A stretch of 64,000 nucleotides of DNA, taken from an uncultured Candidatus Saccharibacteria bacterium (GTDB lineage: Bacteria; Patescibacteriota; Minisyncoccia; Phycocordibacterales; PALSA-1337). Location: contig CAYQFS010000002.1 of the NCBI GenBank assembly GCA_964416985.1, positions 57,155 to 121,154 of the forward strand. Direction: 5' to 3'. The notes below the pieces were generated by a model. That model was given only the letters and a program-made list of their open reading frames with translations, ran no database searches and was not told the origin of the DNA. The translations under genes were made by a program, and so were the position numbers. Below are positions 22,165-47,758 of the stretch, piece after piece (the first letter of the stretch is position 1; each line of letters opens with the position of its first letter).

Positions 22165-22210
22165 AGTTATGGGATAATTATGGCACTAATGAGAGGTTGT
22201 TGCAAAATAT

Positions 22211-22537: not shown

Positions 22538-22582
22538 TCGCGCCCTCGAGGAAATCTCTTTTCCCAGGGCGTGGTTTTTATT

Positions 22583-22912: not shown

Positions 22913-22936
22913 GGTGTGACACTATTATAGCAGAGA

Positions 22937-23689
22937 TTACTCCCCCAAATAAGCCTCCACCACATCCTTCCTCGCAAGTACCTCCTCTGGCCTCCCTTCC
23001 GCCAAAAGCTGCCCTGCATCGAGCACATAGAGATGATCTGAGAGTTCACGAATGAGATCCATATTGTGCTCAACAAGAATGACAGCTTTGCCACTCGTCC
23101 GAAGTTCCTTTAGGACAGAAACGACGACTTTGATCATTTCAGGAAAGAGTCCGGCAAACGGCTCATCAAAAAATACAATGCCAATGTCCCCTGCTCCGCT
23201 GTGAGTCATGGCAAGAACTCGGGCAATCTCAAGAAGTTTTCTCTGACCATAGGATAGATTCTTTGCAAGCTCATTTCTCTTTTCCCAAAGACCGACTTTT
23301 TTCAAAACTTCCTCGGCTTTTTCGAGATGAAAGGCACCGTGCCGTTCAAAGAGAGATTTCCAGATGCTTCGTTCGGTGAGTACTACGAGAATATTGTCGA
23401 GAACTGGCATCTGTTCAAAGAGCTTCACATCTTGGAAGGTACGGGTCATTCCATAGAAAGGAATTTCGTGCGACCTGATTTTTGAGAGACGAGTTGAGTC
23501 AAGGACGATCATCTCGCCAGTATCGATGCTGTGAATACCAGTCAAAGTATTGATGAGGGTTGATTTGCCGGAGCCATTCGGGCCGACGATAGAAGTGATC
23601 TTCCCTGCTTCAAAAGAAATGGAAAGTTTGTTGACAGCAGTAATTCCGTCAAAGTGTTTCGAGAGGTCTTTTGTGGAGAGGAGGGGCAT
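22937..23689 (-). CDS. livG: ABC transporter ATP-binding protein, LivG-like
   Basis: Walker A GPNGSGKST and the LivG-type insertion. TGTATACT lies 6 nt upstream of the chosen ATG. Confidence 0.85.
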   Translation of the reverse strand: MPLLSTKDLSKHFDGITAVNKLSISFEAGKITSIVGPNGSGKSTLINTLTGIHSIDTGEMIVLDSTRLSKIRSHEIPFYGMTRTFQDVKLFEQMPVLDNILVVLTERSIWKSLFERHGAFHLEKAEEVLKKVGLWEKRNELAKNLSYGQRKLLEIARVLAMTHSGAGDIGIVFFDEPFAGLFPEMIKVVVSVLKELRTSGKAVILVEHNMDLIRELSDHLYVLDAGQLLAEGRPEEVLARKDVVEAYLGE

Positions 23690-23925
23690 GAGAAAAGTAT
23701 ACACTTTTTGAGTAGTGGTTGCTACTTGAGTTTTTTGGTCTCTAGGAGTAGGTGTTTGTCGGCGACGTCGGTTTCTCTTTCTTTCCCGTCCTCAGCAGTC
23801 ATTTTCAACTGTCCGATTTTTGCGGAATAAGATAAGTCTAGCGGGGTACATAGTGATGTAAAGGGCAAAAACAGCCAAAAAGCGATGAAAATTTGATTTC
23901 GTCTTTATTTCGTGGGGATAACTAT

Positions 23926-25032
23926 CTATATTTCCACTGCCTTACTTCCCTTTATCTCCTTCATCATAATCGCAGATTTGTCTGCTACCACTCCCCCAAT
24001 TCCATCAAAGGTGACTTTTCCGTATGTAATCGTATCGAATGAAACTGACTTCATATAATCTGAGATATCTTGTGGATTATCCTGAAGATACTTGGCTATC
24101 ACATATACAGTATCATACGTGGTCCCGGCGCTAAACATCGGTTCATGTCCAAACTGAGCCATGAATTTTTCAGAAAATGCTTCATTGGGAGTCGCTGGGA
24201 CATAATACTTGATTCCTTCAAGCCAAGAGGTGTTGAAATTATTGTCGGTGAGATCTTGTTCAATAAATTCATCGCCATAAAATGCGATTTTCTTTCCAGA
24301 AATCTCCCGATATTTTTTGATAAAACCAAAACTCAATTTCGGATCATATGAACCAAAGAATATAGCGTCAGGTTTTTCTTCATTAATCTTAGCAATAACT
24401 GTTCTACCGTCGTTATCCGGATTTATAAGCTCCTGTCCAACAATCTGTATTCCCTGTCTCTCTGCTTCATTAACCAAAAACTCTTTAAGTTTTGAATAGT
24501 ACGAATCGTTCTGCAAAACAATGTAGAGTTTTTTAACCTCAGCTTTTTTCATTGCATCCACTGTAACCAGAGCTTTAGCCTCTGTGCGGTACCAAAGTGA
24601 AAAAACATTTTGATGATTCACGGGAGTATTAACTGACTCAATTGCTGCATCCTGAGAAATAAGGAGTATATTTTGAGGGATGATACTCTCTGACCCTTGA
24701 TATGAATCGAGCCAGGTAACCATGACAGCTTTTACGCTATCAACATTAATAAGCTTCGAGACTGCAGTGACAGAATCTTTTGAAGAACTTTTCATATCTT
24801 CAACAACAAGTTCAAAGTTCTTTCCCTGAATTCCTCCTTTTGAATTAATTTCATTGACAGCCATTTGAGCTGCCTTGAAAGATTCTTCACCCCAGGGAGC
24901 TGCGTCACCAGTAAGGGCAAGAGCAGCGCCAATCTTAATCGTCTCCTGCAGCTTTTCCTTAGTCTTATGAGAAACGACAATGAGTACTAGGACAATCAAC
25001 GCCACTACTCCCCATATTATTTTTTTATTCAT
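23926..25032 (-). CDS. ABC substrate-binding protein, type I periplasmic-binding fold (Leu/Ile/Val-binding family), N-terminal TM anchor
   Basis: The anchor MNKKIIWGVVALIVLVLIVV is followed by IKIGAALALTGDAAPWGEESFKAAQMAVNEINSKGGIQGKNFELVVEDMKSS, typical of LivK/LivJ-like proteins. Confidence 0.8.
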   Translation of the reverse strand: MNKKIIWGVVALIVLVLIVVSHKTKEKLQETIKIGAALALTGDAAPWGEESFKAAQMAVNEINSKGGIQGKNFELVVEDMKSSSKDSVTAVSKLINVDSVKAVMVTWLDSYQGSESIIPQNILLISQDAAIESVNTPVNHQNVFSLWYRTEAKALVTVDAMKKAEVKKLYIVLQNDSYYSKLKEFLVNEAERQGIQIVGQELINPDNDGRTVIAKINEEKPDAIFFGSYDPKLSFGFIKKYREISGKKIAFYGDEFIEQDLTDNNFNTSWLEGIKYYVPATPNEAFSEKFMAQFGHEPMFSAGTTYDTVYVIAKYLQDNPQDISDYMKSVSFDTITYGKVTFDGIGGVVADKSAIMMKEIKGSKAVEI

Positions 25033-25036
25033 AGTA

Positions 25037-26155
25037 TTATTTCAATTTTATTGGTATAGCTGTCTTTCCGTCAAATGTCATGAGAATCACTTCTGCCCCG
25101 CTTCGATCTCGGTCTTCATTTAATATGATTCTCCCTGAAACCCCGTCCCGTGAATCAAATGATTGTAAAACTTTTTCTACTTCTGTTGTTCCTGCCTTCC
25201 TTAAGGCATCTGCTACCATATATACTGCATCATATGTTGTATCAGCTGAGACTCCTGGAGCTATTCCATATTCTTTTGTAAAAGAATCTACAAATTCCTG
25301 CCGTGGAGGTGCATACGTAGCGTAGATAACGTCTTTAATGTACTCAGGCGCAAGCTGCGCTGGAAGACCAAATGTTACCACATCTGTAGGAAAGAGAAGT
25401 GGGACATTGAGGCCTAATTCTCGTGATTGCTTTACAAAACGCTCAAGAGGTCCTGGTGCCATAACAAAGAAAACCGCTTCGCTTGCTTCTTTCTTCATTT
25501 TTGCAATGTGTGTTTTAAAATCAGATGTATCATAAATTACAGTGACTGTTTCAGTTGTAATAATCCCCGCCTTTTGTGCGTATTCATTGAAAGCTGCAGT
25601 AAGAGAACTTTCATAAGGCCCTATTGTACTTATACTTGCTGCCTTTTTAATCCCCTTTCTTTGAAGATCTTGAACAAGAGCTTCTACTGCTATTCCATCT
25701 GAAGGCCATGTACGTAAAAGATACTGACTTTTCTTAGTAAAACCAGGAGCTCCTGCAGCAACAGTTATGGTAATCAGTTTGTTTTGATTGATTATCGGAA
25801 TAATGGGTTCTGTTTCTGATGTCCACCCCGTCAAAAGAAAAGAAACTTTATCAAAGGAAATGAGCTTACTCACTGCTGAAACAGAACTTTTCGGCTCAGT
25901 CTTATTATCCTCAGCAACCAGTTTAAGTTGAGTTCCAAGAACACCTCCAGCGGCATTAATTTCTTTTATCGCTAGTTGTGCACCCTTAAGCTGATTTTCA
26001 CCCCACGAAGCTCCAGAACCTGTGAGAGCAAAATTTCCTCCGATTACTATTGGTTCAGAGGAAGTGAGAGTGGTAGACTTCCTTGTCACACCCCAAATGA
26101 CAATGAATGTTATAACTAACGCCACTACTCCCCATATTATTTTTTTCATATCCAT
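25037..26155 (-). CDS. ABC substrate-binding protein, LivK-family paralog 2, TM-anchored
   Basis: IVIGGNFALTGSGASWGENQLKGAQLAIKEINAAGGVLGTQLKLVAEDNK. Its architecture parallels the neighbouring SBP. Confidence 0.8.
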   Translation of the reverse strand: MDMKKIIWGVVALVITFIVIWGVTRKSTTLTSSEPIVIGGNFALTGSGASWGENQLKGAQLAIKEINAAGGVLGTQLKLVAEDNKTEPKSSVSAVSKLISFDKVSFLLTGWTSETEPIIPIINQNKLITITVAAGAPGFTKKSQYLLRTWPSDGIAVEALVQDLQRKGIKKAASISTIGPYESSLTAAFNEYAQKAGIITTETVTVIYDTSDFKTHIAKMKKEASEAVFFVMAPGPLERFVKQSRELGLNVPLLFPTDVVTFGLPAQLAPEYIKDVIYATYAPPRQEFVDSFTKEYGIAPGVSADTTYDAVYMVADALRKAGTTEVEKVLQSFDSRDGVSGRIILNEDRDRSGAEVILMTFDGKTAIPIKLK

Positions 26156-26191
26156 ATTCTACCCTTCCATCCTGAACTTGCAACCCCTCGA

Positions 26192-27058
26192 TTACAACCT
26201 ATACTCCCCCACAAGCCCCTGCGGACGGTAAAGCATCAGCAGTATGAGAATGAGACCGTAGACCACTTGACGCATTTGGGCAGCGATATCTGATGGAAAC
26301 CCGACAAAACGAAGGATCTCAGGTAAGAGAATGAGGCACACAGCACCAAGAACTGCCCCTTTGTTGTTCGAAAGACCACCAAGAATGATGATGGCGAGGA
26401 TGAAGATTGACTCGGTCAAGGTAAAGGTCGAAGGATCGATGAAAGTGATGTAGCTTGCAAAAAGAGCACCTGCGACAGAAGCAAGAACTGCAGCAATGAC
26501 AAAGATTGCGAGCTTGTACCAGAGCGTATTGTAGCCAAAAATCTGGATGGCTTGCTCGTCTTCACGAATAGCCTTGAGCACTCTTCCAAAAGAAGACTGG
26601 GTAATGTAGGTGCATACTCCGAAGATCACGAGGCCAATAACGAGAGAAAGAATGAGGAAGGAGAGGTTGTCAGAAAAAGTAAAACCAAAAAGAGATGGGC
26701 GAGAAATACCGGGAATTCCCAAGGGGCCTCGGGTAAGAGATTGCCAGTTCAGGAAAATGCTGTAGATAATGATGTTAAATCCAAAGGAACCGAGAGCGTA
26801 GTAGTCGTCTTTAAATTTAGACAAAACATATCCAATAGCAAGACTCAAAGTAGCGGTGATGACCATCCCGATAATGACAGCGAGAAAAAAATTCATTCCA
26901 ACTGTTGTAAGAAGAATGGCAGTAACATAGGCGCCGATTCCGTAGAAGGCTGCCTGGGTGACCGAGAGAAGACCGGTGTACCCGACAACAAGATTTAATG
27001 AAAGGCCAAGGATGCCGTAGATACAGATGAGAATGGCGATGTGGATGAGGTATTCCAT
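26192..27058 (-). CDS. livM: ABC transporter permease, LivM-like
   Basis: Polytopic membrane protein with LivM-type segments (GYTGLLSVTQAAFYGIGAY). Confidence 0.8.
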   Translation of the reverse strand: MEYLIHIAILICIYGILGLSLNLVVGYTGLLSVTQAAFYGIGAYVTAILLTTVGMNFFLAVIIGMVITATLSLAIGYVLSKFKDDYYALGSFGFNIIIYSIFLNWQSLTRGPLGIPGISRPSLFGFTFSDNLSFLILSLVIGLVIFGVCTYITQSSFGRVLKAIREDEQAIQIFGYNTLWYKLAIFVIAAVLASVAGALFASYITFIDPSTFTLTESIFILAIIILGGLSNNKGAVLGAVCLILLPEILRFVGFPSDIAAQMRQVVYGLILILLMLYRPQGLVGEYRL

Positions 27059-27075
27059 GACCTCATAATTCTACA

Positions 27076-28200
27076 CTATTTTTGAGTATAAGGAATCTGC
27101 ACACTATTTTTAATTACATTTACAACGACAGGTATACTTTCTACAGCGTGGCCACTTGTATATTTAATCGTACTGTTTGGAGTAGTAAATTGATTCTTTT
27201 CGATATATGAAGCAACGTCAGCAGAGTTGGTCGAATGAACAATCGCCTGCGCGAGCACATAGACTGCATCAAATGTCTTATCAGCAGCTTTTGTCGGCTC
27301 AGTATTGTATGTGGTTTTATATAGAGAAGCAAAAGCTGGGCTCGGAATTTCCCAATTGAGAACCACTACACCTTCAAGAAGACTCTTGTCCTTTTCATTT
27401 GCAAAGGCATCAGTAATCCCGTTGTAGCTAATGATTGTTGGTTTGAAACCCAATTGTTTTGACTGGACAAGGAAATTTAATGGATCATCCCCTACCATGT
27501 CGAGAAATACCGCATCAACTTTTTGCGATTTGAGCTTGACAATCATCGTACGAAAATCATTTCCACCAATCTGAGTATACTCTTCATCAACAATGCCCGA
27601 CTGACCATTTTCCTTTACAACAGCATCGAGAGTTTTTGCAATTTCTTTTCCATATCCTGACTGGAAATGCACAACTGCAAGTTTATTTGGCTTTGCAACA
27701 GATAGATAGCTTTTAAGTTCACGAAGTACCTTACTAAATTCGGGATACATGCTGAATGTCTGCTCATTTGGCTCAAAAGCTCCAGGGATTCTGAATACTT
27801 CGGGAGTAATGAGAACAATTTTATTTGAGAGTGCGAGAGGAAGAAGTGGTTGGCTGGTAAAATCAAAAATACTTCCAATAACTCCCTGAACCTTGTCAAC
27901 ACTTACTAGTTTATTGTAGGCAGAGACAGAATCTTTGGCATCTGTATGATCATCCTCAAAAATAACCTGAACTTCCCTGCCCTCAATTCCTCCATTGCTA
28001 TTTATCGTCTTTACAGCGAGATCAATACCATTCTTTGCGTATTCTCCCCACGGCGCAGCAAAGCCTGTAAGAGAAACAACCGCCCCAATTTTAATAGGTT
28101 CTTTGTCAGAAATAGCCTGCTGATTAGTCTTTTTGCCAACGCCCCAAATACCGAGACCAATAATAATAACTACTACGACTGCAATGATTATTTTTTTCAT
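27076..28200 (-). CDS. ABC substrate-binding protein, LivK-family paralog 3, TM-anchored
   Basis: The start chosen is the internal Met MKKIIIAVVVVIIIGLGIWGV. The upstream extension of the supplied ORF lacks coding character. IKIGAVVSLTGFAAPWGEYAKNGIDLAVKTINSNGGIEGREVQVIFEDD. Confidence 0.75.
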   Translation of the reverse strand: MKKIIIAVVVVIIIGLGIWGVGKKTNQQAISDKEPIKIGAVVSLTGFAAPWGEYAKNGIDLAVKTINSNGGIEGREVQVIFEDDHTDAKDSVSAYNKLVSVDKVQGVIGSIFDFTSQPLLPLALSNKIVLITPEVFRIPGAFEPNEQTFSMYPEFSKVLRELKSYLSVAKPNKLAVVHFQSGYGKEIAKTLDAVVKENGQSGIVDEEYTQIGGNDFRTMIVKLKSQKVDAVFLDMVGDDPLNFLVQSKQLGFKPTIISYNGITDAFANEKDKSLLEGVVVLNWEIPSPAFASLYKTTYNTEPTKAADKTFDAVYVLAQAIVHSTNSADVASYIEKNQFTTPNSTIKYTSGHAVESIPVVVNVIKNSVQIPYTQK

Positions 28201-28221
28201 ATTGCACAAAGTATAGCGTAC

Positions 28222-28230
28222 TGGTATAAT
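28222..28230 (+). promoter_or_regulatory. Extended -10 element TGGTATAAT upstream of the TrmB-family regulator gene
   Basis: Consensus TATAAT with an upstream TG, about 55 nt before the ATG at 28286. It lies in an 85-bp divergent region shared with the SBP3 start. Confidence 0.4.
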
Positions 28231-28285
28231 TTGTCCATAGTTCGGCGAAAAGCGAATAATTAAGATACACAAGCTTATTTCATCT

Positions 28286-29059
28286 ATGAATAAAGAAATC
28301 CCAGATTTTTTTGAAATATTCGACCTCAAACCTGTACCAAAGAAGGTGCTTTTGGATATTGTTAAGCACGGAGATTCCTCTGTCGCAAATATTGCCGCAC
28401 GGCTCAATATGCCAAAATCGACCGTCTATGATGCCCTCTCCCCTCTTATCGCCAAAAGTCTCATAAATGAGTATAGTGGTGACCATGGTAAAACATTTGG
28501 AATATCAGATACTGAACAGCTTACCCGAGTCCATGCGGAGAAAATGGAGGAACTCAAAAAGGCTCACTCTTCCCTTCTTTCATTTATTCAAAACCACAAA
28601 GCAGAAAATAGTGTTGCTCAGCCAAAAATTAAATTTTATTCAGGAATCCTGGGAATCAAACAGGCATTTCGCGACACGCCATGGGTAAAGGAGCATAAGG
28701 AAACATACATGCTCTGGCCAACCACGGACATGATTGACATTGATGAAGCATTTTTTAAGTGGCACGGTACGCAGCGTTTCGCTTATAAGGTTTTCATTTA
28801 TGCAGTCGAGAAACATGCCGATCGAAAACTTCAGACTAAAAAACACGAATGGCTTAAAAATGATTCGAAAGAAAATCTTGTGAAAGTACGATATCTACCA
28901 AAAGGAACTGACGTAAAAATGAGCTACTGGATTTACGGAGATAAAGTTCTTTTTGCAAGTGGTGGTGCTGAAAAAATTGCCTTTACTGTTCATAGCAAAG
29001 AATTTTCACAGATGATGAAGATTATGTGGCAAAACACGTGGGACAATTCAAAAGAATAA
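28286..29059 (+). CDS. TrmB-family transcriptional regulator (N-terminal wHTH plus C-terminal TrmB-like domain)
   Basis: DLKPVPKKVLLDIVKHGDSSVANIAARLNMPKSTVYDALSPLIAKSLI is a TrmB-type HTH. 257 aa is a typical full length. It is divergently oriented and embedded in the liv cluster. Confidence 0.6.
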   Translation: MNKEIPDFFEIFDLKPVPKKVLLDIVKHGDSSVANIAARLNMPKSTVYDALSPLIAKSLINEYSGDHGKTFGISDTEQLTRVHAEKMEELKKAHSSLLSFIQNHKAENSVAQPKIKFYSGILGIKQAFRDTPWVKEHKETYMLWPTTDMIDIDEAFFKWHGTQRFAYKVFIYAVEKHADRKLQTKKHEWLKNDSKENLVKVRYLPKGTDVKMSYWIYGDKVLFASGGAEKIAFTVHSKEFSQMMKIMWQNTWDNSKE

Positions 29060-29926
29060 TCACTTCTTCAATATTCCCTGCGGTCTGAAGAGAAGGAAAA
29101 TAATGAGCACTCCGAATGCAATTGCATCTTTCCATTCTCCTGATATCTTCCAAATTCCAAAGTTTTCGATGAATCCGAGGAAAAATGCACCAAGTACTCC
29201 TCCATAAATATTTCCAATTCCCCCGATGATGGAAGCAATAACTCCCTTCAAGAGAAGTGAGAGGCCCATTGTGGGTTCGATTCCTGTATCAAATCCAACG
29301 AGAATTCCAGCGAGGCCTGCGATCGCAGAGCCGATGAAGAAAACTTTGCCAATAACTTTTTTTGTATCAATTCCAACAATCTTTGAAACTTCCTCATCAT
29401 CCCCTACTGCCTTAATTGCTTTTCCAAAAATTGTAAATTTAAGGACACACGCCATAATCGCCATGATGACCAAACCGGTAACAAGAATAACAAGCTGAAC
29501 TTCAGTGATAATTCCTCCTAAAATGTTAAAAACTCTCCCGGCTCCGGCACTCTGTGTCAATGTCTGAAACTGACTTGTAAAAAAGATGGCGATAATTGCC
29601 TGAAGTGCCGTGAAGGCTCCGAGCGCACCGACCAGAAGAACCATTCCTGAAGATTTTCTTTCGCGAAGTGGTGCGTAGACGAGACGATAGATGATGTAGC
29701 CAATGAGTCCGGCAATTATTACTCCGATCACAATAGATGCATAGAGATTGAAACCGAGAATTTTATAAAAATAGAAGACGGCATATCCTCCAACTGCCGT
29801 GAGTGCTCCATACCCAAGGTCAAAAAACCTCACTGTTCCGTAGATTAAATTAAAACCAAGGGCGACCATTGTGTAGATCGCTCCGGCAATAATGCTGTTG
29901 ACCACCAGTTGAGGAATGATGTCCAT
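29060..29926 (-). CDS. livH: ABC transporter permease, LivH-like
   Basis: Polytopic permease (IAGAIYTMVALGFNLIYGTVRFFDLGYGA). It lies tail-to-tail with the TrmB regulator, with a zero-bp gap. Confidence 0.8.
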   Translation of the reverse strand: MDIIPQLVVNSIIAGAIYTMVALGFNLIYGTVRFFDLGYGALTAVGGYAVFYFYKILGFNLYASIVIGVIIAGLIGYIIYRLVYAPLRERKSSGMVLLVGALGAFTALQAIIAIFFTSQFQTLTQSAGAGRVFNILGGIITEVQLVILVTGLVIMAIMACVLKFTIFGKAIKAVGDDEEVSKIVGIDTKKVIGKVFFIGSAIAGLAGILVGFDTGIEPTMGLSLLLKGVIASIIGGIGNIYGGVLGAFFLGFIENFGIWKISGEWKDAIAFGVLIIFLLFRPQGILKK

Positions 29927-29999: not shown

Positions 30000-30135
30000 A
30001 TCAATCTCTGATGTAGTAAGTCCCCCTGGGCTACGGCCTCCGGACCCAAGTATTGGGCAATTGGTGCAAAGGCGTTGAGGGAAATGTAGGGGCCCCTCCA
30101 AGGTTGACTGAAGAAGACCTGTTATGGGTCTTTTT
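30000..30135 (+). ncRNA. Candidate small structured RNA (about 135 nt), or on the other strand the structured 5' leader of livH; identity unknown
   Basis: GC-rich (GTCCCCCTGGGCTACGGCCTCCGGACCCAAG ... GGGGCCCCTCC) in an AT-rich intergenic region. It ends in GAAGACC-tgttatg-GGTCTTT plus a T-run on the plus strand. No plausible CDS. The minus strand reads UUGGGUCCGGAGGCCGUAGCCCAGG, loosely reminiscent of SRP RNA domain IV. Confidence 0.3.
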
Positions 30136-30529
30136 CGTTGTGCTTTCTATCCTTTACAGAAAAGAAATGTTTTGGTCCATCATTAATTCTTCTGATAATA
30201 ACATAGACAAATTTTTCATCCATTTTTTTCCGAAGTTCCCAAAATTCTGCTACTGAGCCTGGCAAGCCTTTATTTTTAGTTCGAATATTTTTTATATAAC
30301 CCGAATATTGCAAGGTCTTCTGAATGATCAATGACGCATGTTCGAAAAGATGAATCTTTCTCATTTGCTCAGATCTTTTCCTTAATTTACCTTTTTTCAT
30401 CAAGAGATGATCGAATCCTTCTTGGGTAAAATAAACCCTTTCACCTCCAAAGGCCGGACACTCAACATATCCAATCTTTTTATACTCCTCATATCTTTCT
30501 TTTACAAATCTCTTCCAATCTTTCTCCAT
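30122..30529 (-). CDS. Hypothetical protein (135 aa), last gene of the pilus-locus transcription direction
   Basis: Intact ORF with basic/charged composition. No recognisable domain. Confidence 0.45.
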   Translation of the reverse strand: MEKDWKRFVKERYEEYKKIGYVECPAFGGERVYFTQEGFDHLLMKKGKLRKRSEQMRKIHLFEHASLIIQKTLQYSGYIKNIRTKNKGLPGSVAEFWELRKKMDEKFVYVIIRRINDGPKHFFSVKDRKHNEKDP

Positions 30530-30541
30530 TCATATTTTCAA

Positions 30542-30916
30542 TTAATCTATTGAAATAACCTCCACCCCTTGCACCCCAAGCCTCACTGTCGCTTTTCGAT
30601 ACACAAGTGCGTTCATATAATTTCCGACTGCAGTTATCTTCCTTAGATCACCATCTTTTTCAACAGAGAGAATTGAACAATGAAACTGCGAAATTGGAAT
30701 TGGAGAAGCTGGTTCAAAAAAATAATCGTGAGCGAGAGCAAGGATTGCCTGATCGAGACAGTCGTAGGCGTAGTAGTAATTCATGGCTCGATATTCCTTT
30801 TTCATTGCCTGGTCAAAAAAGAGTGCGGAATCGATTGATGAAACGAGAACAAGAGCGAGGAGAGTTCCCGCTACGCTTAAGACCAGTGTCAGTGCAATAA
30901 ATCCTCTGTTATTCAT
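30542..30916 (-). CDS. Prepilin-like protein (type IV pilin-like N-terminus lacking Glu+5)
   Basis: Start chosen at MNNRG, followed by FIALTLVLSVAGTLLALVLV. This is a short basic leader ending in Gly plus a hydrophobic helix, as in minor pilins/pseudopilins. Confidence 0.45.
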   Translation of the reverse strand: MNNRGFIALTLVLSVAGTLLALVLVSSIDSALFFDQAMKKEYRAMNYYYAYDCLDQAILALAHDYFFEPASPIPISQFHCSILSVEKDGDLRKITAVGNYMNALVYRKATVRLGVQGVEVISID

Positions 30917-31070
30917 ATCTAAATAAGTGTGATAAGCCAGACAATTGCCCCGACGATGGCTCCATAGAAACAAAGACTTCCAACGAGAAGAAAGCAAAGT
31001 GTTGGTACAACAAAATCCATTTCATTTTTTTCTATTTTATTTTCTTTTTTCATATATTTCTTTGTTAATG

Positions 31071-31238
31071 TTATTCATGATATTTTTCTAAAAGTAACTC
31101 CTGTTCATGCTCACTCTGGCTGGCAGCTCTCTCCTCCGAGCCAATGAGCATGTACACCGAGGAAATGACTCCAACCATGAGAAGCGAGAGAAGGGCAATG
31201 TAGACCAGTGTTTCGATGAGAGTGATTCCTTTATTCAT
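31071..31238 (-). CDS. Short type IV pilin: leader MNKG, mature about 51 aa consisting essentially of the N-terminal alpha1 helix
   Basis: Internal start of ORF 31071..31316. MNKG|ITLIETLVYIALLSLLMVGVISSVYML fits the class III signal (cleavage after Gly, Glu at +5). No globular domain follows. Confidence 0.6.
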   Translation of the reverse strand: MNKGITLIETLVYIALLSLLMVGVISSVYMLIGSEERAASQSEHEQELLLEKYHE

Positions 31239-31257
31239 ATATTCATGGTTTGAAATG

Positions 31258-32604
31258 TTAGTTTGAAAGTAATACCGCGAACCCTTTTCTATCTCCTGAG
31301 GCAAAATAGAAAGCATTTCCGTCGCAGGTCATGGCCTGGGGGAAAAATCCAAGAGGATACTCGAAAATCTTTGCGGACAAATCTCTTTTCCAGATCTGGA
31401 ATTCTTTGTTAACAAGGCGTGTAGCAACAAACAAAGTCTCCGGCTGCATGACTATTCCATAGACACCTCCGGGAATATCGTGAGAAAAAGCTGTTGCAAG
31501 GGGCGATGTGGTGGAGAAGGAAAAAAGTTCGTGATTAAGAAGAACATTAAATCCTCCTGTGGTTCTTCCAAGAGAGAGTTTTCCTTCAAAATATGAGAGG
31601 CTCTTCCCCTCCTGAGTCTCCCAGCCGGTCGGAGAAAAAGATTCAATCTGGGAAATGGCCAAAGGATTCCTCACATCAAGAATTCTCATCTGCCCTTGGT
31701 CAGAAGCTGCAACAAATGCAAGGCCATCACGGACGTATATATCGTTAATGAGGGTATCGGTCTTGAAACCTCCAAGATATTTCGGAGTAGCCGGATTTGA
31801 GACATCAATAACATTAAACTCATTTCCGTCCCATTTTTTCGTACCTATATATACGAGACCCTTGCTGTAGAAAATTGCAGTTGCTGCAGGAGCAGTCGAT
31901 GATGCAAACGGAAGGGGTAGTTTGAATTTAGACCTGAGAATTGGAGAAGACCTGTTCGAAATATCGATTATCTGAAGCTGGTTTGTACCTCCTGTATTTG
32001 AAGCAAAAATGTATGGTCCGGCAACTTCGATACGTGAAAGGCCTGGTCCAGTATCGAGAGAGGAGATGATGTGTGAAGATGTTGGATTTCGTGCATCGAC
32101 TATATATATGTCTGGGTCAGAAGCAGTTGCGGAGTCGGCCGTGAGATATACAAAACCGTTTCTTGCCTCAAGATCAGTACTCACGTTTCCAGATCCGAGA
32201 TCAACCCCCTGAGAATACAAGTGGATATTTTGCTGCTGTTCATTAAAAGCAATTCTTGGATTGCAGCTATCTCTTCCCCACCCCACCTGCGTATCAGAAG
32301 AAAGTATGGTGAGGGGCCCAATCTCAAATTGCCTCGTATCATTTCCATAGGGAGTTTCCGAAAAGCGGGTAGTGGAAGCAAAGGCATGATGAGCCAGAAA
32401 ATAATCTGCATTGTTAATTGATTTCTTGACGTCCTCGAGTGACTTCACTCCTGTTTCTCGAAGTTTCTGCATAGTTGCCGAAAGGACGAGAGCTGAAATG
32501 AGAAAAAGTGTCATGAGAGAAAAGGCAATCATTGCTTCAGGAATGAGAAAGCCCGACGTTCTCACATTTGGAAAATTATTTTGTAAGATGATTTGTAATT
32601 TCAT
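31258..32604 (-). CDS. Large pilin-like protein (about 448 aa): prepilin N-terminus (G|FLIPE) fused to an LVIVD-repeat beta-propeller domain
   Basis: RTSG|FLIPEAMIAFSLMTLFLISALVL is a prepilin peptidase motif with Glu at +5. Downstream there are at least four repeats of the LVIVD type (IYIVDARNPTSSHI, LQIIDISNRSSPIL, FNVIDVSNPATPKYL, MRILDVRNPLAISQI). Confidence 0.6.
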   Translation of the reverse strand: MKLQIILQNNFPNVRTSGFLIPEAMIAFSLMTLFLISALVLSATMQKLRETGVKSLEDVKKSINNADYFLAHHAFASTTRFSETPYGNDTRQFEIGPLTILSSDTQVGWGRDSCNPRIAFNEQQQNIHLYSQGVDLGSGNVSTDLEARNGFVYLTADSATASDPDIYIVDARNPTSSHIISSLDTGPGLSRIEVAGPYIFASNTGGTNQLQIIDISNRSSPILRSKFKLPLPFASSTAPAATAIFYSKGLVYIGTKKWDGNEFNVIDVSNPATPKYLGGFKTDTLINDIYVRDGLAFVAASDQGQMRILDVRNPLAISQIESFSPTGWETQEGKSLSYFEGKLSLGRTTGGFNVLLNHELFSFSTTSPLATAFSHDIPGGVYGIVMQPETLFVATRLVNKEFQIWKRDLSAKIFEYPLGFFPQAMTCDGNAFYFASGDRKGFAVLLSN

Positions 32605-33616
32605 AAATTGGAAGAATAATGGAGAGAGCGACCGAGCCCACAATGAGCCCCATCCCGATCATGAGCACAGGTTCGATCACTGTTGAAAGCTGCTTTATAA
32701 AATTATCGAGCTCCTGCTCGTACATTTTTGAAATATGAGTAAGCATCGAAGAAAGAGAGCCGGTTCTCTCCCCAATAAAAAGCATACTCGGGACAAGTTC
32801 AGGAAAAATCTGAGGAGAAGATTTCATTGACTGAGACAGAGAAACGCCTTTGATAACTTCTTCATGGCAACTCTGCCATCCTGCGCGGTACGGTTCATAC
32901 GAAGGAGACCCAGCCGCCTGTCCGAGGATAGATGAGAGCGACTGACCATTTTCAAGGAGCACTCCCATTGATCGAAGTGAGGTACTCACGAAGTACTTTT
33001 TAATACTTTCTCCGACAACAGGAATTCGTAAAAATAATTTTTGAAAAAACCATCGAAAAGCTGTGTTCTTCTTGTAAAGAATTTGAAAAATAATGAGAAG
33101 TAGAATTCCTGAACAGCAAACCCACAAACCATACCGAAGCGAGAAAAGATAGAGAGCCCTCACTGCTCGTGTAAGAAACGGTAACTTTATATTCATACTT
33201 GAAAAAAGAGGAATGATTTTTGGAAAAATATACATAACTAGAAAAAGGGTCATAGCAACGGTCGCAGTGGCAATGAAAGACGGATACATGAGCGCCCCAA
33301 GCATCTTTTTCTTGAGTTCCCCTCCTTTTTCCATTACGTGGTAGGCCTGACGAAGAGAGAGCGCAAGCGTCCCCGAGCTTTCTCCGTTTTTTATCATTGA
33401 AACAAGAGTCGGATCAAATCGGACTTTGGTAAGGGTCATACTTTTTGAAAATGAAACTCCTTTTTCGACGCTATCCCTCATGATTCCCAAAATTCTTTTG
33501 CCTTTCTTTGATTTTTCCATATTGAAAATAATAGAAAGAGTTTCCCCAAGAGAAATTCCCGATTCGATAAGTACCGCCGATCTGTGAATGAAGGCGAGTT
33601 GTTCTTTTTTATTCAT
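32576..33616 (-). CDS. pilC: Type IV pilus / type II secretion platform protein (PilC/GspF family)
   Basis: Two GspF-type repeats with 3 TM segments (SLRQAYHVMEKGGEL ..., EPVLMIGMGLIVGSVALSIILPIYEI). Confidence 0.85.
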   Translation of the reverse strand: MNKKEQLAFIHRSAVLIESGISLGETLSIIFNMEKSKKGKRILGIMRDSVEKGVSFSKSMTLTKVRFDPTLVSMIKNGESSGTLALSLRQAYHVMEKGGELKKKMLGALMYPSFIATATVAMTLFLVMYIFPKIIPLFSSMNIKLPFLTRAVRALYLFSLRYGLWVCCSGILLLIIFQILYKKNTAFRWFFQKLFLRIPVVGESIKKYFVSTSLRSMGVLLENGQSLSSILGQAAGSPSYEPYRAGWQSCHEEVIKGVSLSQSMKSSPQIFPELVPSMLFIGERTGSLSSMLTHISKMYEQELDNFIKQLSTVIEPVLMIGMGLIVGSVALSIILPIYEITNHLTK

Positions 33617-33628
33617 GACTTTGTTTAA

Positions 33629-34783
33629 TTATTCATGCAGGACTCTCAAAACTTCTTCTTTTGTCGTAATCCCTCTTTCGACTTTTTCCATTCCATCCTC
33701 GTACATCGTCATCATCCCGGAAACTTTTGCATACCTGCCAATTTCCGAAAGTGAAATACGAGACATAATGTACTTTCTCATTTCCTCATCGATGACAAGA
33801 GTCTCAGCAACAACCACCCTTCCTTTGTACCCAGATTTTCCACACAATGTACAACCAATTCCCTTGCACTCCTGACACACTTTTCGAACAAGCCTCTGGG
33901 CAATAACGAGCGAGATAGTCGATGCCACAAGGTAGGGATCAACCCCCATATCAATGAGGCGTGGAATAGCCCCAAGAGCCGAATTTGTATGAAGTGTCGA
34001 AAGTAAAAGGTGACCGGTGAGAGAAATATTTGTAGCGATCTGAGCAGTTTCAGTGTCTCGTATTTCTCCGACCATGATGATGTCAGGGTCCTGCCGTACG
34101 ATGGAGCGCAGACCATTTGCAAATGTAATGCCATGACGCTCCCTAATCTGGATCTGGCGAATTCCCGATATCGCGTATTCGATCGGATCCTCTAGAGTCA
34201 CGATCGACTGCTCTTCCCTTGCAAGAAGCTTTACGAGTGTATAAAGAGACGAAGTTTTTCCTGAACCAGTAGGACCGGTAACAAGAATCATTCCCTGGTG
34301 ATAACCAAGGCTCCGGAGAATTCTTTCTTCGTCATGTTCTGAAAAGCCAAGTTTTGAAAGCGTTGGCTCGTCCCGATTTCCCACAAGAAGCCTCAGAACT
34401 GCATTTTCTCCGTAATGTGTTGGGACAATTGACACTCGAACATCACATTCACAAATCTCCTGAGAAAACCTGAACCTTCCGTCTTGTGGTACAAAATGAA
34501 CATCAGTCCGTAGCCCAGCCAGTATTTTTATTCGTGCAATGAGTTCCTCATGAACATCCATATCGAGAGTATCCATATATATGAGTACCCCATCAATCCT
34601 AAATCGAATGATCACTCCCTCTGGACTTGGATCTATGTGAATATCCGAAGCTGATCGGTGATAGCCGAACATGATGAGTGAATCAGCAAGCTCCACAATC
34701 GACTGAATATCATGAAGCATCCGCTCATTATGTATGATGTCGTATATCTTTTCTTTCATAGCTCGAGGATACCAGGTGAGCAA
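33629..34783 (-). CDS. pilB: Type IV pilus assembly ATPase, PilB/GspE family (short form lacking the N1 domain; C-terminal tetracysteine motif)
   Basis: Walker A VTGPTGSGKTSS, Asp box, Walker B DPDIIMVGEIRD, His box LSTLHTNSA, and CQECKG ... CTLCGKSG zinc motif. The last distinguishes PilB/GspE from PilT. Confidence 0.85.
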   Translation of the reverse strand: MLTWYPRAMKEKIYDIIHNERMLHDIQSIVELADSLIMFGYHRSASDIHIDPSPEGVIIRFRIDGVLIYMDTLDMDVHEELIARIKILAGLRTDVHFVPQDGRFRFSQEICECDVRVSIVPTHYGENAVLRLLVGNRDEPTLSKLGFSEHDEERILRSLGYHQGMILVTGPTGSGKTSSLYTLVKLLAREEQSIVTLEDPIEYAISGIRQIQIRERHGITFANGLRSIVRQDPDIIMVGEIRDTETAQIATNISLTGHLLLSTLHTNSALGAIPRLIDMGVDPYLVASTISLVIAQRLVRKVCQECKGIGCTLCGKSGYKGRVVVAETLVIDEEMRKYIMSRISLSEIGRYAKVSGMMTMYEDGMEKVERGITTKEEVLRVLHE

Positions 34784-34968
34784 TAAAGAAATACCTAAAA
34801 ATAAATAAAATTTTGATAAAGTCGCATTTTGTCAAGGTTTTCTCTCGGGAGAAATCCCACCTGCTTGTTTTTTTGAATTAGTGTGGTATATTGTCGTCTG
34901 GCTTTGTTCTTCCAAATAATGATTTGAGAGGTATATGCAAGGCTAAAAACGGCAACCGATCGATAACT

Positions 34969-35910
34969 ATGATTGAAACCCAGAAGATGATAACGGACCT
35001 CAAAAGAGGCGCTTTACAGGGAATTACTGCTCTACAAATGCTCGCAGAGGAAGGTGTAAGATTCATCTGTGCATCGGGCACGGGCGGATCCGGAAAAGAC
35101 CTTCAGCTTGATCTTGTGGAGGCAACGCTCGTTCATAACAACAAAATTGTCGTCCACGTGAGCACGAGTGCAGCCATCAGGCATCACAAGCAAGGTGAGG
35201 ATGCTCTCGGTAAAAGTTTGACAGCTACATCAGGTAACGAAAAAAAGGGTGTTTTATTCCCTGACGAACCGACACTTGCTGCACTTGCATGCGATGTGCT
35301 TGTATTCTATTCAAAAAACTTCCGTGAAGTTCTTTTCAGCGGTTTCCCTCGAGGGAAGGAGCAGCCTAAGCTTGCTTTATCCATCAAGGGGGCGACGATT
35401 CAGCATTACAACGTCGGCCTACGCACCGCCCTCACTCGAGCAATGATGAGAACAAAACAAAGGCTTAAATTCGGTTTAGAACCAAGGGAGGATGATAGCC
35501 TTAGCACGGTGAGAGATCGCTTCCACGATCACATGAATAATACCATCCCCGAGCTCAGGAAACTCGATGCTCTACACCCCCATCGGATAAAATGGATCAA
35601 CGGTGATCAGCCGATCGCAGCCGTACTCCACGATTCACTCGAGTCCATGGGATATGAGCCAAGATTGATCGACTATTGCCTAAGCACCTTTGGACGTCGA
35701 GAGGGAGGGGTTGCCAAGATTATGGCAGAAATTGAGGGACCTGAAGCGGTACCGACAGGACGTCCGATGGAACGGACTCCCCAATCCTCCAGAATCAAGC
35801 GGCCAGAATTGACTTCCTCGACCATCAGAATCCCGACCCACTTCCTTGGACAAGGAACAAGAGAGATCTTTCTGCGTGGTGCTCAGCCTCGGTCATCGGC
35901 TTGCGCCTGA
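34969..35910 (+). CDS. Divergent adenylate-kinase-family (NMP kinase-like) protein with non-canonical P-loop and about 130-aa C-terminal extension; GC-elevated gene
   Basis: ICASGTGGSGKDLQ vs AK GAPGAGKGTQ. STSAAIRHH vs STGDMLRAA. VLFSGFPRGKEQ vs LLDGFPRTIPQ. REDDSLSTVRDRFHDH vs RKDDQEETVRKRLVEYH. The catalytic Arg positions are conserved. Alternative start at 34891. About 50% GC versus about 40% background. Confidence 0.5.
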   Translation: MIETQKMITDLKRGALQGITALQMLAEEGVRFICASGTGGSGKDLQLDLVEATLVHNNKIVVHVSTSAAIRHHKQGEDALGKSLTATSGNEKKGVLFPDEPTLAALACDVLVFYSKNFREVLFSGFPRGKEQPKLALSIKGATIQHYNVGLRTALTRAMMRTKQRLKFGLEPREDDSLSTVRDRFHDHMNNTIPELRKLDALHPHRIKWINGDQPIAAVLHDSLESMGYEPRLIDYCLSTFGRREGGVAKIMAEIEGPEAVPTGRPMERTPQSSRIKRPELTSSTIRIPTHFLGQGTREIFLRGAQPRSSACA

Positions 35911-41393: not shown

Positions 41394-42707
41394 CTACAGG
41401 AATACTAAGTTGCGATCAAAATCATCTGCGTCAGTTCCTTTAACATCTCTCTTCAGAGCTTTGTGAGTAGAAGCAAGGTGAACCACTTTTTTCCCAAACT
41501 TATGTTCGAGCGCATCTATCTGCCTATGAATTGACTCAAACTTTCCCGCCTTTATACTTCCACCAAAAAGATCTGATTGAGCGGCAGAACTTGGCACAAG
41601 CTCAGAAAGGGTCACTCCTGCTGTGCGATACTTTACCCCCTTTCTATGCACGTCTTTGAAATGATCAAGAATAAGGGAGATGAGCATTTCGGGAGCATTT
41701 GTGGGAGATTGAAGAGAGAGTGAAAGAGAATGGTAGCCAAATTCCCTCGTCTTTAGAAAAAATGAAATCCGCCTCGGAACAAGATGGTAGTGCCGAGCTT
41801 TTGCACACACATCCTCGATATGTTTTGAGAGTTGAGAAATGAGAAAGTCGGGGTCGTTAGTGAAAGGATGAAATGTCCTCGTTCTCTGCATTGACGAATA
41901 CTCAGTCTTTGCTCGTGGATCAACTTCCATGACGGAAGTACCATTGAGCTCCTGCCACAGAATTTCGTATGGTTTTGAAAGATTTTCCTGTATCCACCAA
42001 GCTGGCTTCTGTGCAAACTCAAGAGCTGTTCTTATTCCCTTTTTATTCAAATATTCAGATGTTTTCCTCCCAATTCCCCAGACATCATGCACTGAGACGG
42101 TCTTTAGAAATTCGGGTGCAGTCTCTGCAGTTATAATAGTAAATCCATTTGGCTTTTTCCACTTTGATGCTACCTTCGCCAGTACCTTTGTGGGAGCAAG
42201 CCCAAGAGACACCGACAACCCCATTTCCTCATTTATTTCTTTTTTAATTTTTCTCCCAATTTCTTCGTACGTCATCTTGAGCGGACGATCAAGTCCTGTG
42301 AGCTCAGCAAAACATTCATCGATACTATACTCCTCAACTTCATCTGCATACCTTCTCACAATATCAAACATCATTCCTGAATATTTTACATACGAAGCAT
42401 AATCTCCCGGAAGGATAATGACCTGCGGAAATTGTTTCTTTAATTTAAAAATGGGCAACCCACGAGTGACTCCCAAGGCTTTGGCTTCATATGAGAGTGC
42501 AGAGACAATTCCCCTTTCCTCGCCAGTCACGACAGGTAGGCCCTTCAATTTGGGGTTCTTGGCAATCTCGACACCCACAAAGAAAGCGTCACCGTCGATG
42601 TGGAGGGTGCATTTACTAGACGATGGGGTTGTGGGGGAAAAGGTTGATGGAGCGGTAAGAGAGATTAATGAGTCTACTTTATTGTGATATAATTGTACCA
42701 TAATCAT
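41394..42707 (-). CDS. dinB: Y-family translesion DNA polymerase (DinB / Pol IV-like)
   Basis: LHIDGDAFFVGVEIAKNPKLKGLPVVT ... YSIDECFAELTG are Y-family catalytic motifs. The little-finger region is present. Confidence 0.85.
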   Translation of the reverse strand: MIMVQLYHNKVDSLISLTAPSTFSPTTPSSSKCTLHIDGDAFFVGVEIAKNPKLKGLPVVTGEERGIVSALSYEAKALGVTRGLPIFKLKKQFPQVIILPGDYASYVKYSGMMFDIVRRYADEVEEYSIDECFAELTGLDRPLKMTYEEIGRKIKKEINEEMGLSVSLGLAPTKVLAKVASKWKKPNGFTIITAETAPEFLKTVSVHDVWGIGRKTSEYLNKKGIRTALEFAQKPAWWIQENLSKPYEILWQELNGTSVMEVDPRAKTEYSSMQRTRTFHPFTNDPDFLISQLSKHIEDVCAKARHYHLVPRRISFFLKTREFGYHSLSLSLQSPTNAPEMLISLILDHFKDVHRKGVKYRTAGVTLSELVPSSAAQSDLFGGSIKAGKFESIHRQIDALEHKFGKKVVHLASTHKALKRDVKGTDADDFDRNLVFL

Positions 42708-42716
42708 TTAACCCCC

Positions 42717-47687: not shown

Positions 47688-47711
47688 GCCTGAATTATAC
47701 CTTTTTTGCAT

Positions 47712-47758
47712 AAAAAATACCGCCCGAGCTTCGGTTAAGAAGCCCGGGACGGGTGAAA
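47712..47758 (-). terminator. GC-rich intrinsic terminator after pyrC (minus strand), T6 tail
   Basis: The minus strand reads CCGTCCCGGGCTTC-ttaacc-GAAGCTCGGGCGG then TATTTTTT. Confidence 0.6.

Follow-up and report, generated by a model that had tools for sequence, protein, structure and literature searches.

A type IV pilus operon conserved widely across ultrasmall Patescibacteria and encoding a predicted modular pilin with an LVIVD beta-propeller and a head-less short pilin

The 64-kb stretch of DNA analysed here (the window) carries on its minus strand a pilB-like gene, a pilC-like gene, three genes for proteins with class III prepilin signals, a membrane mini-ORF and a gene for a protein without an assigned family; every gene listed in the preliminary description was recovered in place. 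The pilB-like gene (33629..34759) encodes an extension ATPase of 376 aa counted from the ATG, the form in which the product appears in the source contig record; the ORF reaches 34783 if a TTG start is used. The protein matches PF00437 (E 6e-112, residues 25-380), lacks the T2SSE_N domain and, in the alignment with the 564-position PilB model, spans positions 175-460, in agreement with its original recognition as a short PilB without the N1 domain. The pilC-like platform protein (32576..33616; 346 aa) matches PF00482 in two stretches (E 2.6e-43). With a PilB/GspE-type ATPase, a PilC/GspF-type platform and class III pilins, the system belongs to the type IV filament (T4F) superfamily, as had been proposed. 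No prepilin peptidase (PilD/ComC) was detected in the window: Peptidase_A24, PilM/N/O and a second T2SSE ATPase had no match among its ORFs of at least 120 aa, nearly all of which were scanned, in line with the reported lack of pilD, pilM/N/O and pilT. No further class III signals are present elsewhere in the 64 kb. Promoter-like sites in the locus are no more numerous than in shuffled sequence, and terminator-like sites are only slightly above that level. The adk-like neighbour shows weak similarity to NMP kinases and no sign of coupling, and a nucleotide-salvage link through this gene was accordingly discarded.

The best-scoring NCBIfam models for the two motor proteins are GspE and GspF, both below their cut-offs. 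In particular, the ATPase scores 427 bits with GspE (cut-off 630), 394 with PilB (676), 237 with ComGA (300) and 53 with the TadA family (373), and the platform protein scores 223 with GspF (424) and 140 with ComGB (240). A T4aP is disfavored by the score of the PilB equivalog and by the absence of PilM/N/O and PilT, which are missing in the window and in the flanks of related loci, and a Tad/Flp pilus (T4cP) by the TadA-family score and by a platform that is a single two-domain PilC. The core-only composition fits a Com pilus (T4dP), with both Com scores under the cut-offs. The two top-scoring models, the lack of a retraction ATPase in the gene cassette and the GspK-like fold of the third pilin (see below) would suit a short T2SS-like pseudopilus or piston that secretes a substrate, or just displays the propeller through the wall, without any extended filament. 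We consider this very improbable because every Gsp score is under its cut-off, GspL, GspM, GspC, GspD and the other Gsp components are absent in the window, and the canonical pilin linked to the locus in relatives is annotated and built as a pilus subunit; moreover, Patescibacteria have neither PilQ-type secretins nor an outer membrane (PMC6744442).

Related loci were gathered by an alignment-based metagenome scan; a single-protein scan of genome contigs gave 5 loci. The core order, pilB, pilC, propeller pilin, short pilin and Glu5-less pilin, is colinear in approximately 70 to 90 fetched Patescibacteria loci. A homologue of the propeller pilin is found in 89 loci; pilB, pilC and the propeller gene are colinear in all 57 loci with room upstream, and both the short and the third pilin genes are present in 67 of the 74 loci with room downstream. 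The minor-pilin genes overlap, typically by 4 nt between the propeller and short genes and by 11 nt between the short and third genes, and the overlap of the short gene with both neighbours suggests translational coupling. The five genes thus form a deeply conserved, colinear and tightly overlapping cassette, and the locus is a genuine type IV pilus operon, conserved widely among ultrasmall Patescibacteria. Between the window and one of its closest relatives (L092), the pilB-like products are 91% identical, with dN/dS of 0.02.

The first pilin gene (31258..32604), which overlaps the 3' end of pilC by 29 nt, encodes a 448-aa protein with a G|FLIPE signal (cleavage G18|F19); Glu5 is kept in at least 90% of 42 homologues. 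The match to PF08309 (LVIVD) that was expected for this protein was obtained (46 bits, E 3e-12; cut-off 20.2), and the AF2 model (pLDDT 89) consists of an alpha1 helix of 53 residues (20-72), a reduced, three-stranded sheet (81-103) and a seven-bladed propeller (127-447), which bears out the description of a propeller-bearing pilin. Under the definition of modular pilins as an N-terminal pilin module joined to an unrelated folded domain (PMC8179133), the modelled protein is a modular pilin, with a seven-bladed LVIVD propeller as the predicted module. It contains an invariant Cys114/Cys427 pair. In each of the 42 homologues, the propeller domain has an acidic composition (pI 4.5-5.8, net charge -3 to -18); the propeller is highly conserved, at a mean column identity of 53%. 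A profile search yielded 3371 representatives at E <= 1e-30, some of which are giant repeat proteins, and a sequence profile search of the PDB gave no match for this pilin.

The second pilin gene (31071..31238) encodes a 55-aa precursor, MNKG|ITLIE..., with a predicted mature form of 51 aa that comprises a hydrophobic alpha1N segment and an acidic tail of about 20 aa, without a globular head. The precursor matches PF07963 (25.4 bits, cut-off 21.2), and its best NCBIfam match, ComGE, is weak. The source record calls an 81-aa version starting at ATG 31316, and the relatives favor the MNKG start. The possibility that this ORF is an annotation artefact, raised at the outset, can be dismissed. The gene directly follows the propeller gene in 69 of the 74 loci with room, the mature length is 40-54 aa in about 65 loci, and the comparison with L092 (pN 0.13, pS 0.51) points to purifying selection and hence to a real gene. 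The helix length described at the outset is confirmed. Similar lengths are typical of the Flp pilins of Tad pili, so the size of 51 aa by itself is not unprecedented. The short pilin has Tyr at +9, whereas the Flp motif G|xxxxEY requires it at +6. Its +1 residue differs among loci (I, S, F, N, M, L or V), and six loci lack the leader or Gly-1. At this position, the distant loci L005 and L087 instead encode a full-length pilin of 127-150 aa, which implies that the short form arose from a minor pilin by loss of its head. In-frame read-through from the short to the third gene is seen in L040, L041 and L073.

The third pilin gene (30542..30916) encodes a 124-aa protein, MNNRG|FIALT, that lacks Glu5 and, in the AF2 model (pLDDT 92), adopts the lollipop fold of a pilin, with a helix of about 60 residues (61 in the model) and a four-stranded sheet, consistent with its initial identification as a Glu5-less pilin. 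The fold resembles those of GspK, GspI and Streptococcus sanguinis PilA, the closest being GspK, and the protein has the features of an apex minor pilin of the GspK/PilX type or the S. sanguinis PilA type. It contains an invariant Cys53/Cys80 pair, and a sequence profile search of the PDB gave no match. A reading of the short and third genes as a Geobacter-like split pilin (PilA-N plus PilA-C) was rejected because the downstream protein is a complete small pilin with its own full alpha1 helix. Between these two genes lies the mini-ORF (30919..31053; 44 aa), the product of which begins with a polar segment and ends in a transmembrane helix. This product is 82% identical at the amino acid level to called genes in L092 and L094 (pN 0.09, pS 0.47), and L010 carries a positional analogue; no homologue was found in the remaining loci, where the short and third genes overlap. 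Judging by these substitution rates, the mini-ORF noted earlier is real, but confined to the subclade of the window, as a lineage-specific insertion. The final gene (30122..30529), encoding a 135-aa protein without a signal sequence, was originally listed with the locus but falls outside the conserved cassette. The protein has no Pfam or NCBIfam match, a homologue at the same position (48% identity) is found only in the closest relatives (L092-L094), and elsewhere the slot is filled by AspRS, CysRS or a pilin; this gene is probably a lineage-specific neighbour that is not part of the pilus system.

Approximately half of the related loci contain a sixth gene; its product, a canonical pilin of about 145 aa, is highly conserved and has the pattern KG|FTLIEILVVIGIIAVLAAVVLVAVNP...ISVTR and an invariant Phe+1. 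Of the roughly 68 loci with room, about 34 have this gene next to the cassette or close by; in 27 loci, its start lies downstream of the third gene at a median distance of about 96 nt, a gap that fits separate, higher expression. The canonical pilin has more than 4000 relatives, the best 120 of which share at least 58% identity; some relatives carry the name PilA in their source records. In two relatives without the gene in cis, it lies elsewhere on the same contig: P0218 is at 30.8-51.3 kb and the cassette at 719.7-736.9 kb of one 825,130-bp contig, and P0221 is on a 667,545-bp contig, the contig of the L009/L012 cassette being likewise 667,545 bp long. The 64-kb window contains no canonical pilin gene, including at both syntenic positions (after the third pilin and after the TrpRS/TyrRS-like gene), and the gene is also absent within 8 kb on either side in the closest relatives (L092-L094), so that the shaft subunit of this genome is one that we infer.

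This distribution bears on the possibility, which we regard as unlikely, that the 51-aa helix-only pilin is the major subunit of an ultrathin head-less filament, with a subunit the size of Flp or Geobacter PilA-N, that is capped or decorated by the propeller and Glu5-less pilins. The helix-only filaments of Tad/Flp systems show that a head-less shaft is physically feasible, and here the short pilin is the only small Glu5-bearing pilin of the cassette and the window, is conserved as widely as the machine, and occurs in a subclade that lacks the canonical gene at the syntenic positions. However, the overlap with both neighbours suggests near-stoichiometric co-translation, the gene lacks the separate intergenic region seen for the canonical pilin, the +1 residue is variable and the leader or Gly-1 is occasionally missing, the distant relatives have a normal-length pilin in its place in addition to the canonical one, and, wherever long contigs allow a check, the canonical pilin is encoded as well, in cis or in trans. 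The helix-only pilin is therefore probably not the major subunit, and the Geobacter-like shaft reading of the preliminary description is not upheld. It is doubtful that, in the subclade of the window specifically, the 51-aa pilin polymerises via a PilB/PilC-type, non-Tad machine into an ultrathin, propeller-capped shaft; if so, no machine of this type would be known to use a smaller shaft subunit.

We favor, with moderate confidence, a model in which the three unusual pilins act as minor pilins and form a tip or priming complex, with the propeller displayed on a shaft of canonical pilin. The specialised tip of the original scheme is thus retained as the likely outcome, whereas the helix-only pilin as the major subunit gives way to the canonical pilin linked in relatives. 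It also appears fairly probable that the locus encodes the motor (PilB without N1, and PilC) and the minor-pilin set of a Patescibacteria-specific filament of the Paceibacterota/Parcubacteria type. Under the favored model, the propeller pilin, the short pilin and the Glu5-less pilin would join in the membrane. The Glu5-less pilin would enter first, since it has no subunit above to pair with, as in the case of GspK and S. sanguinis PilA, and would complement the reduced three-stranded sheet of the propeller pilin, which would enter second. The head-less pilin might then fill the next lattice position, its missing head giving the bulky propeller space and its helix bridging to the shaft. PilB and PilC would polymerise the canonical pilin, encoded outside the window in this genome and processed by a prepilin peptidase encoded elsewhere, beneath this complex, and the acidic, disulfide-clamped propeller would be pushed outward as a tip-located ligand-binding module, the most plausible role of which is attachment to a partner cell or surface. 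Several points run against this model: the canonical gene is absent from the window and from the flanks of the closest relatives, the canonical pilin could serve another T4P machine and be adjacent by synteny only, the level of propeller conservation is unusual for a host-specific adhesin, and the short-third read-through is topologically awkward for two separately inserted pilins.

A different role for the tip, DNA uptake, was among the options first suggested. In this case, the cassette would encode a Com-like pseudopilus, a minimal core-only filament of a monoderm that binds extracellular DNA and feeds a nucleotide-auxotrophic cell. The cassette is indeed core-only, with an ATPase that, as in the case of ComGA, has no N1, a platform and pilins and without PilM/N/O and PilT, and no core-only type IV filament other than the Com pilus is known (PMC10191384); furthermore, the strong conservation of the propeller suggests a universal ligand, and the Parcubacteria core genome includes ComEC and DprA (PMC4508563). 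Nevertheless, the uniformly acidic propeller argues against DNA binding, the ComGA and ComGB scores are below both their cut-offs and the GspE/GspF scores, comEA, comEC and dprA are not found beside the cassette in the inspected loci with called genes, and the propeller-pilin pilus of TM7x made no contribution to competence (PMC11623550). The Com-like reading thus seems improbable.

Patescibacteria account for a large share of bacterial diversity and are believed to spend their lives attached to other cells; the leading candidates for their attachment organelles are type IV pili, with experiments so far only in Saccharibacteria. The cassette is apparently a pilus module of the Parcubacteria/Paceibacterota type with a wide distribution, and three of its five conserved genes have no functional name in the sources checked, where any label given is that of a hypothetical or generic propeller-domain protein. 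Recognition of a minimal tip complex would provide a concrete, testable model of adhesin presentation in Patescibacteria and nominates the conserved, soluble propeller domain for ligand discovery. A head-less minor pilin, which appears to be undescribed so far (a literature search returned nothing relevant on LVIVD pilins or head-less minor pilins), would extend the known repertoire of type IV filament subunits.

Among short pilins, Flp pilins and Geobacter PilA-N have mature forms of about 45-60 aa that are essentially the alpha1 helix, similarly to the short pilin described here. These, however, are major shaft subunits, whereas the present protein is most likely minor; Flp pilins depend on TadA and TadB/TadC instead of a PilB/PilC-type machine, and Geobacter PilA-N pairs with the PilA-C head protein, whereas the third protein here has its own alpha1. 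The Com pilus of monoderm Firmicutes (ComGA-GG) shares with the cassette the core-only composition, the ATPase without the N-terminal domain and the monoderm host, but differs in gene order, since the minor pilins lead here and the major pilin follows at the end or is encoded in trans, and lacks the acidic propeller pilin. The GspH-I-J-K operon of T2SS and PilV-W-X-FimU with PilY1 of T4aP likewise combine minor pilins with a Glu5-less member at the apex, and the C-terminal domain of PilY1 is a beta-propeller effector at the tip. In contrast to these systems, there are three members here rather than four, one of them without a globular head; the smallest of the three is the Glu5-less member, which has no GspK alpha-domain, and the propeller is covalently fused to a pilin, whereas PilY1 is a separate non-pilin protein.

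The T4P-2 of Nanosynbacter lyticus TM7x (PMC11623550) is also a Patescibacteria pilus with its own PilB/PilC, in which the minor pilin PilX2, required for host binding and proposed to be a tip adhesin, carries a C-terminal seven-bladed beta-propeller. The gene for the TM7x major pilin sits at a separate locus, as we propose here. The PilX2 propeller is of the RCC1 type, on a protein without a PilD signal predicted by the authors, as opposed to LVIVD and a conserved G|F...E5 in the present system; locus two of TM7x includes PilM2, PilN2 and PilO2, which have no counterparts in the cassette, a head-less pilin has not been described in TM7x, and the authors report poor conservation of the TM7x pilins beyond Saccharibacteria. 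Finally, the PilA-PilB-PilC tip complex of S. sanguinis (PMC9934059, PMC8179133) consists of a Glu5-less small pilin and modular pilins encoded in an operon of three minor pilins in a monoderm host. The small pilin has a GspI-like fold and resembles the third pilin here; it is proposed to be the first to enter, and to extend the beta-sheet of a modular pilin whose pilin moiety is unusually short, thereby stabilising that pilin. As in our model, bulky grafted modules cap the tip. Sequence homology between the two sets is not detectable, PilM/N/O and PilT are missing here, and the head-less 51-aa pilin has no S. sanguinis counterpart; furthermore, one modular pilin with a seven-bladed LVIVD propeller takes the place of two with a vWA or lectin domain.

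The pilus locus lies on the minus strand of the window (30122-34783), and its preliminary description held in every point: all seven ORFs are present, as confirmed by ORF calling, Pfam and NCBIfam searches and a motif scan. The PilB-like ATPase (376 aa from the ATG at 34759; PF00437, E 6e-112) matches in length the product recorded for the source contig and those of the closest relatives. The T2SSE_N domain was not found at its N-terminus by family search, and the NCBIfam alignments cover only positions 175-460 of the 564-position PilB model and 103-387 of the GspE model, which indicates that the N1 region is indeed missing from this short form. The protein meets no equivalog cut-off (GspE 427 bits for a cut-off of 630, PilB 394 for 676, ComGA 237 for 300). 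PilC consists of two T2SSF domains. A Pfam search covering nearly all ORFs of 120 aa or more detected neither a prepilin peptidase nor PilM/N/O or PilT in the window, as had been noted from the sequence, and likewise no further T2SSE ATPase; a six-frame motif scan of the 64 kb gave no further class III signal with Glu5. Neither Pfam nor NCBIfam yielded a family match for the third pilin, the 44-aa mini-ORF or the 135-aa protein of this locus. In one close relative, pilB is called as a 452-aa product (L094:926-2284) in which a Glyco_tran_WecG match is fused N-terminally to T2SSE; either a genuine fusion or a rearrangement at this locus could explain it.

The 448-aa protein encoded downstream of pilC contains LVIVD repeats, as expected from its sequence (PF08309, 46 bits for a cut-off of 20.2). 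In an alignment of 42 homologues, the N-terminus G|F(L/I)xxE(I)M(I)AFSL is conserved, Glu5 is present in at least 90% of the sequences, and Cys114 and Cys427 are invariant. The protein fits the definition of modular pilins given by Raynaud et al. (PMC8179133); its pilin module is unusually reduced. A word-indexed search identified 288 homologues, all unnamed or labelled hypothetical and all from Patescibacteria, Taylorbacteria or Paceibacterota MAGs, and a profile search of 1.84 billion cluster representatives gave 3371 matches at E <= 1e-30, including many full-length proteins of 420-530 aa along with giant LVIVD repeat proteins.

Comparison by phmmer of the window proteins with 89 loci encoding a propeller pilin homologue revealed a conserved cassette. 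The order pilB-pilC-propeller pilin is colinear in all 57 loci with room upstream; the short pilin and the third pilin are each found in 69 of the 74 loci with room downstream (both in 67), and among the misses, at least L072 proves to hold a divergent copy when inspected by eye. The pairing of a short pilin with a propeller pilin is a conserved feature of related loci. Upstream of the cassette, a divergently transcribed adenylate kinase-like gene and bipA are often found. The respective P-loop protein of the window (34891-35910, plus strand, divergent from pilB) is only weakly similar to adenylate/UMP kinases (PF00406, E 1.6e-4, below cut-off); its gene is syntenic with bipA, truB and hisS in several related loci, and nothing points to a functional connection with the pilus.

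The 55-aa short pilin scores above the N_methyl (PF07963) cut-off. In about 65 loci, the ORF directly 3' of the propeller gene codes for (K/R)G|xTLIE, a hydrophobic helix and then a polar tail 15-25 residues long, with a mature length of 40-54 aa; the tail is of the type ...DYELLIKNYHE in the larger clade that includes the window and ...IxLxHDIEDAY in a more distant clade. Comparison with the 76%-identical protein of the close relative L092 (pN 0.13, pS 0.51) points to purifying selection, and the short pilin is, judged by these alignments, a real gene rather than an annotation artefact. With 51 residues, it cannot be more than the alpha1 helix. The source record places its start at an upstream ATG, giving an 81-aa product that overlaps the propeller gene; all relatives back the MNKG start instead. 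Full-length pilins (127-150 aa mature) occupy the same position in the distant loci L005 (6800-7252) and L087 (5906-6412), which suggests that the globular head was lost secondarily, within the Paceibacterota-type lineage.

Two kinds of variants of this gene were observed. In six loci (L046, L047, L050, L051, L062 and L069), the short pilin opens with Met at +1 (MTLIEALIY...; for example, L051:6036-6188) and has neither a leader peptide nor Gly-1, so that cleavage by prepilin peptidase would not be needed, an unusual feature for a type 4 pilin. In three others (L040:5879-6349, L041 with the same sequence, and L073:627-1193), the short-pilin ORF lacks a stop codon, so that it continues in frame into the third pilin, which is shortened at the C-terminus and has its own ATG 9 codons before its G|F site; this read-through is explained either by nested translation or by a natural fusion that carries two hydrophobic helices.

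The third pilin (124 aa) indeed lacks Glu5: its 33 homologues keep M..KG|F(I/V)A(L/I)T and two invariant cysteines, and none has Glu5. The AF2 model (pLDDT 92) comprises a 61-residue helix and a four-stranded sheet, with fold matches to GspK (9.9), XcpX (8.9), the Streptococcus sanguinis minor pilin PilA (7.8), EpsI (6.9) and GspI (6.5); in their respective complexes, GspK and S. sanguinis PilA are the subunits without Glu5 (PMC9934059). This pilin (C53/C80) and the propeller pilin (C114/C427) each have one invariant cysteine pair. A DsbA/thioredoxin-like oxidoreductase is encoded at 42693-43469 (plus strand), within a conserved syntenic block near the pilus locus, and its presence together with the cysteine pairs agrees with the association of CPR pilins with disulfide oxidoreductases noted previously (PMC6744442).

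Two small genes of the locus are lineage-specific. The possible 44-aa membrane mini-ORF (30919-31053, minus strand) lies in a 154-nt gap that most relatives lack. Its product is 82% identical to those of called genes in L092 and L094 (pN 0.09 vs pS 0.47), and by these measures it is a genuine small membrane protein that entered the pilin operon in the window's subclade. A positional analogue in L010 shares its architecture, the N-terminus being polar and the C-terminus forming a transmembrane helix. The gene after the third pilin encodes the 135-aa protein, which has no signal sequence, is shared only with the closest relatives, L092-L094 (48% identity), and, although present and without family as described, is not counted as part of the pilus system. 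For both small proteins, phmmer found no other counterpart in the fetched related loci. Next comes a Liv-type branched-chain amino acid ABC transporter cluster (21439-29926, both strands), common to the window and L092-L094, with two permease, two ATPase and three Peripla_BP_6 binding-protein genes and a TrmB-family regulator. Farther away, a 251-aa protein (49056-49811, minus strand) ends in a VPDSG-CTERM exosortase-type sorting motif (PF18205, 30.5 bits for a cut-off of 25), and no exosortase was seen in the window. A dihydroorotase-like gene (47774-48865, minus strand; TIGR00856, 217 bits, under the cut-off of 293) adjoins an AddA/UvrD-type helicase-nuclease gene (44742-47792); an enzyme of the pyrimidine synthesis type comes as a surprise here, as nucleotide biosynthesis is said to be lacking from this lineage.

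Scanning the related loci for additional class III signals revealed a sixth gene, a canonical pilin that lies just 3' of the third pilin in roughly half of the loci that have room (strictly adjacent in 25, nearby in ~9 more, undetected in 33). The mature protein of ~145 aa, KG|FTLIEILVVIGIIAVLAAVVLVAVNPARQFKLARDSQR...GRITVSA.GEIT..ISVTR (profile pattern FTLIEILVVIGII...ISVTR), is conserved over its whole length, distant loci included, and has more than 4000 database relatives, the best 120 of which are at least 58% identical; several are named PilA by their sources. Its start lies a median of ~96 nt from the stop of the third pilin; the propeller/short and short/third genes overlap, typically by 4 and 11 nt. 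For cassettes without the sixth gene, the same pilin was found elsewhere on the contig: copy P0218 at 30.8-51.3 kb of an 825,130-bp contig with the cassette at 719.7-736.9 kb, and copy P0221 on a 667,545-bp contig, the contig of cassette L009/L012 likewise being 667,545 bp long. Both copies are flanked by a TrpRS/TyrRS-like gene and a Peptidase_S11 gene. Given that the pilin and Peptidase_S11 pair directly follows the cassette in L008, the two blocks probably were once contiguous. The window itself is rearranged (3492-6045, plus strand, compared with L090:8850-11515 and L006:9859-11151). Relatives have the TrpRS/TyrRS-like gene, canonical pilin and Peptidase_S11 at one site and the cassette and AspRS at another; the window has its TrpRS/TyrRS-like gene (3492-4637) directly against AspRS, and the pilin-S11 pair is gone from both sites where relatives have it or the cassette. 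Since neither the window nor the flanks of L092-L094 gave a tblastn match to the canonical pilin, we infer that the shaft pilin of this genome is located outside the window.

The pattern observed in the gene content, folds, conservation and linkage of the cassette most likely follows the logic of a minor-pilin tip or priming complex, given the three tightly coupled pilin genes, one Glu5-less and GspI/K-like and one with a bulky effector on a truncated pilin module, and the separately spaced canonical pilin downstream or in trans. The Glu5-less pilin would enter first, the propeller pilin would join it, the head-less pilin would be added, its absent head leaving space for the propeller and its bare helix bridging to the shaft, and the canonical pilin would then form the shaft; this entire order is proposed by inference. 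A specialised tip with a propeller, one part of the filament proposed in the preliminary description, is favoured; the other part, a shaft of helix-only subunits, is a less likely alternative for the window's subclade, disfavoured by the coupling of the short pilin gene to its neighbours, by the variability of the +1 residue, by the existence of leaderless variants and by the linkage of the canonical pilin to the cassette. Functionally, attachment via a tip-exposed propeller is the most economical reading, by analogy with PilX2 of TM7x. The main rival is DNA uptake, favoured by core-only machinery like that of the Com pilus (PMC10191384) and by a strongly conserved propeller suggestive of a universal ligand; however, the propeller domain is acidic in all 42 homologues (pI 4.5-5.8, net charge -3 to -18), no com genes are present in the loci inspected, and ComGA and ComGB scores are under cut-off.

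A T4P operon belongs to the Parcubacteria core genome (PMC4508563, PMC6744442), and precedents are known for modular pilins (PMC8179133) and, in Saccharibacteria, for a propeller-bearing minor pilin (PMC11623550). In the literature searched, we found no description of this conserved cassette, of an LVIVD propeller pilin, of a conserved head-less minor pilin or of a three-member tip set with a helix-only member. The closest characterised analogue is PilA-PilB-PilC of the monoderm S. sanguinis: assembly there is proposed to begin with the small PilA, which lacks Glu5 and lengthens the beta-sheet of PilC, a modular pilin, and the tip is capped by the modules (PMC9934059). Phylogenetically, the nearest precedent for the propeller pilin is PilX2 of Nanosynbacter lyticus TM7x, a propeller-bearing minor pilin that is required for host binding and belongs to a pilus with the major pilin encoded at another locus (PMC11623550).
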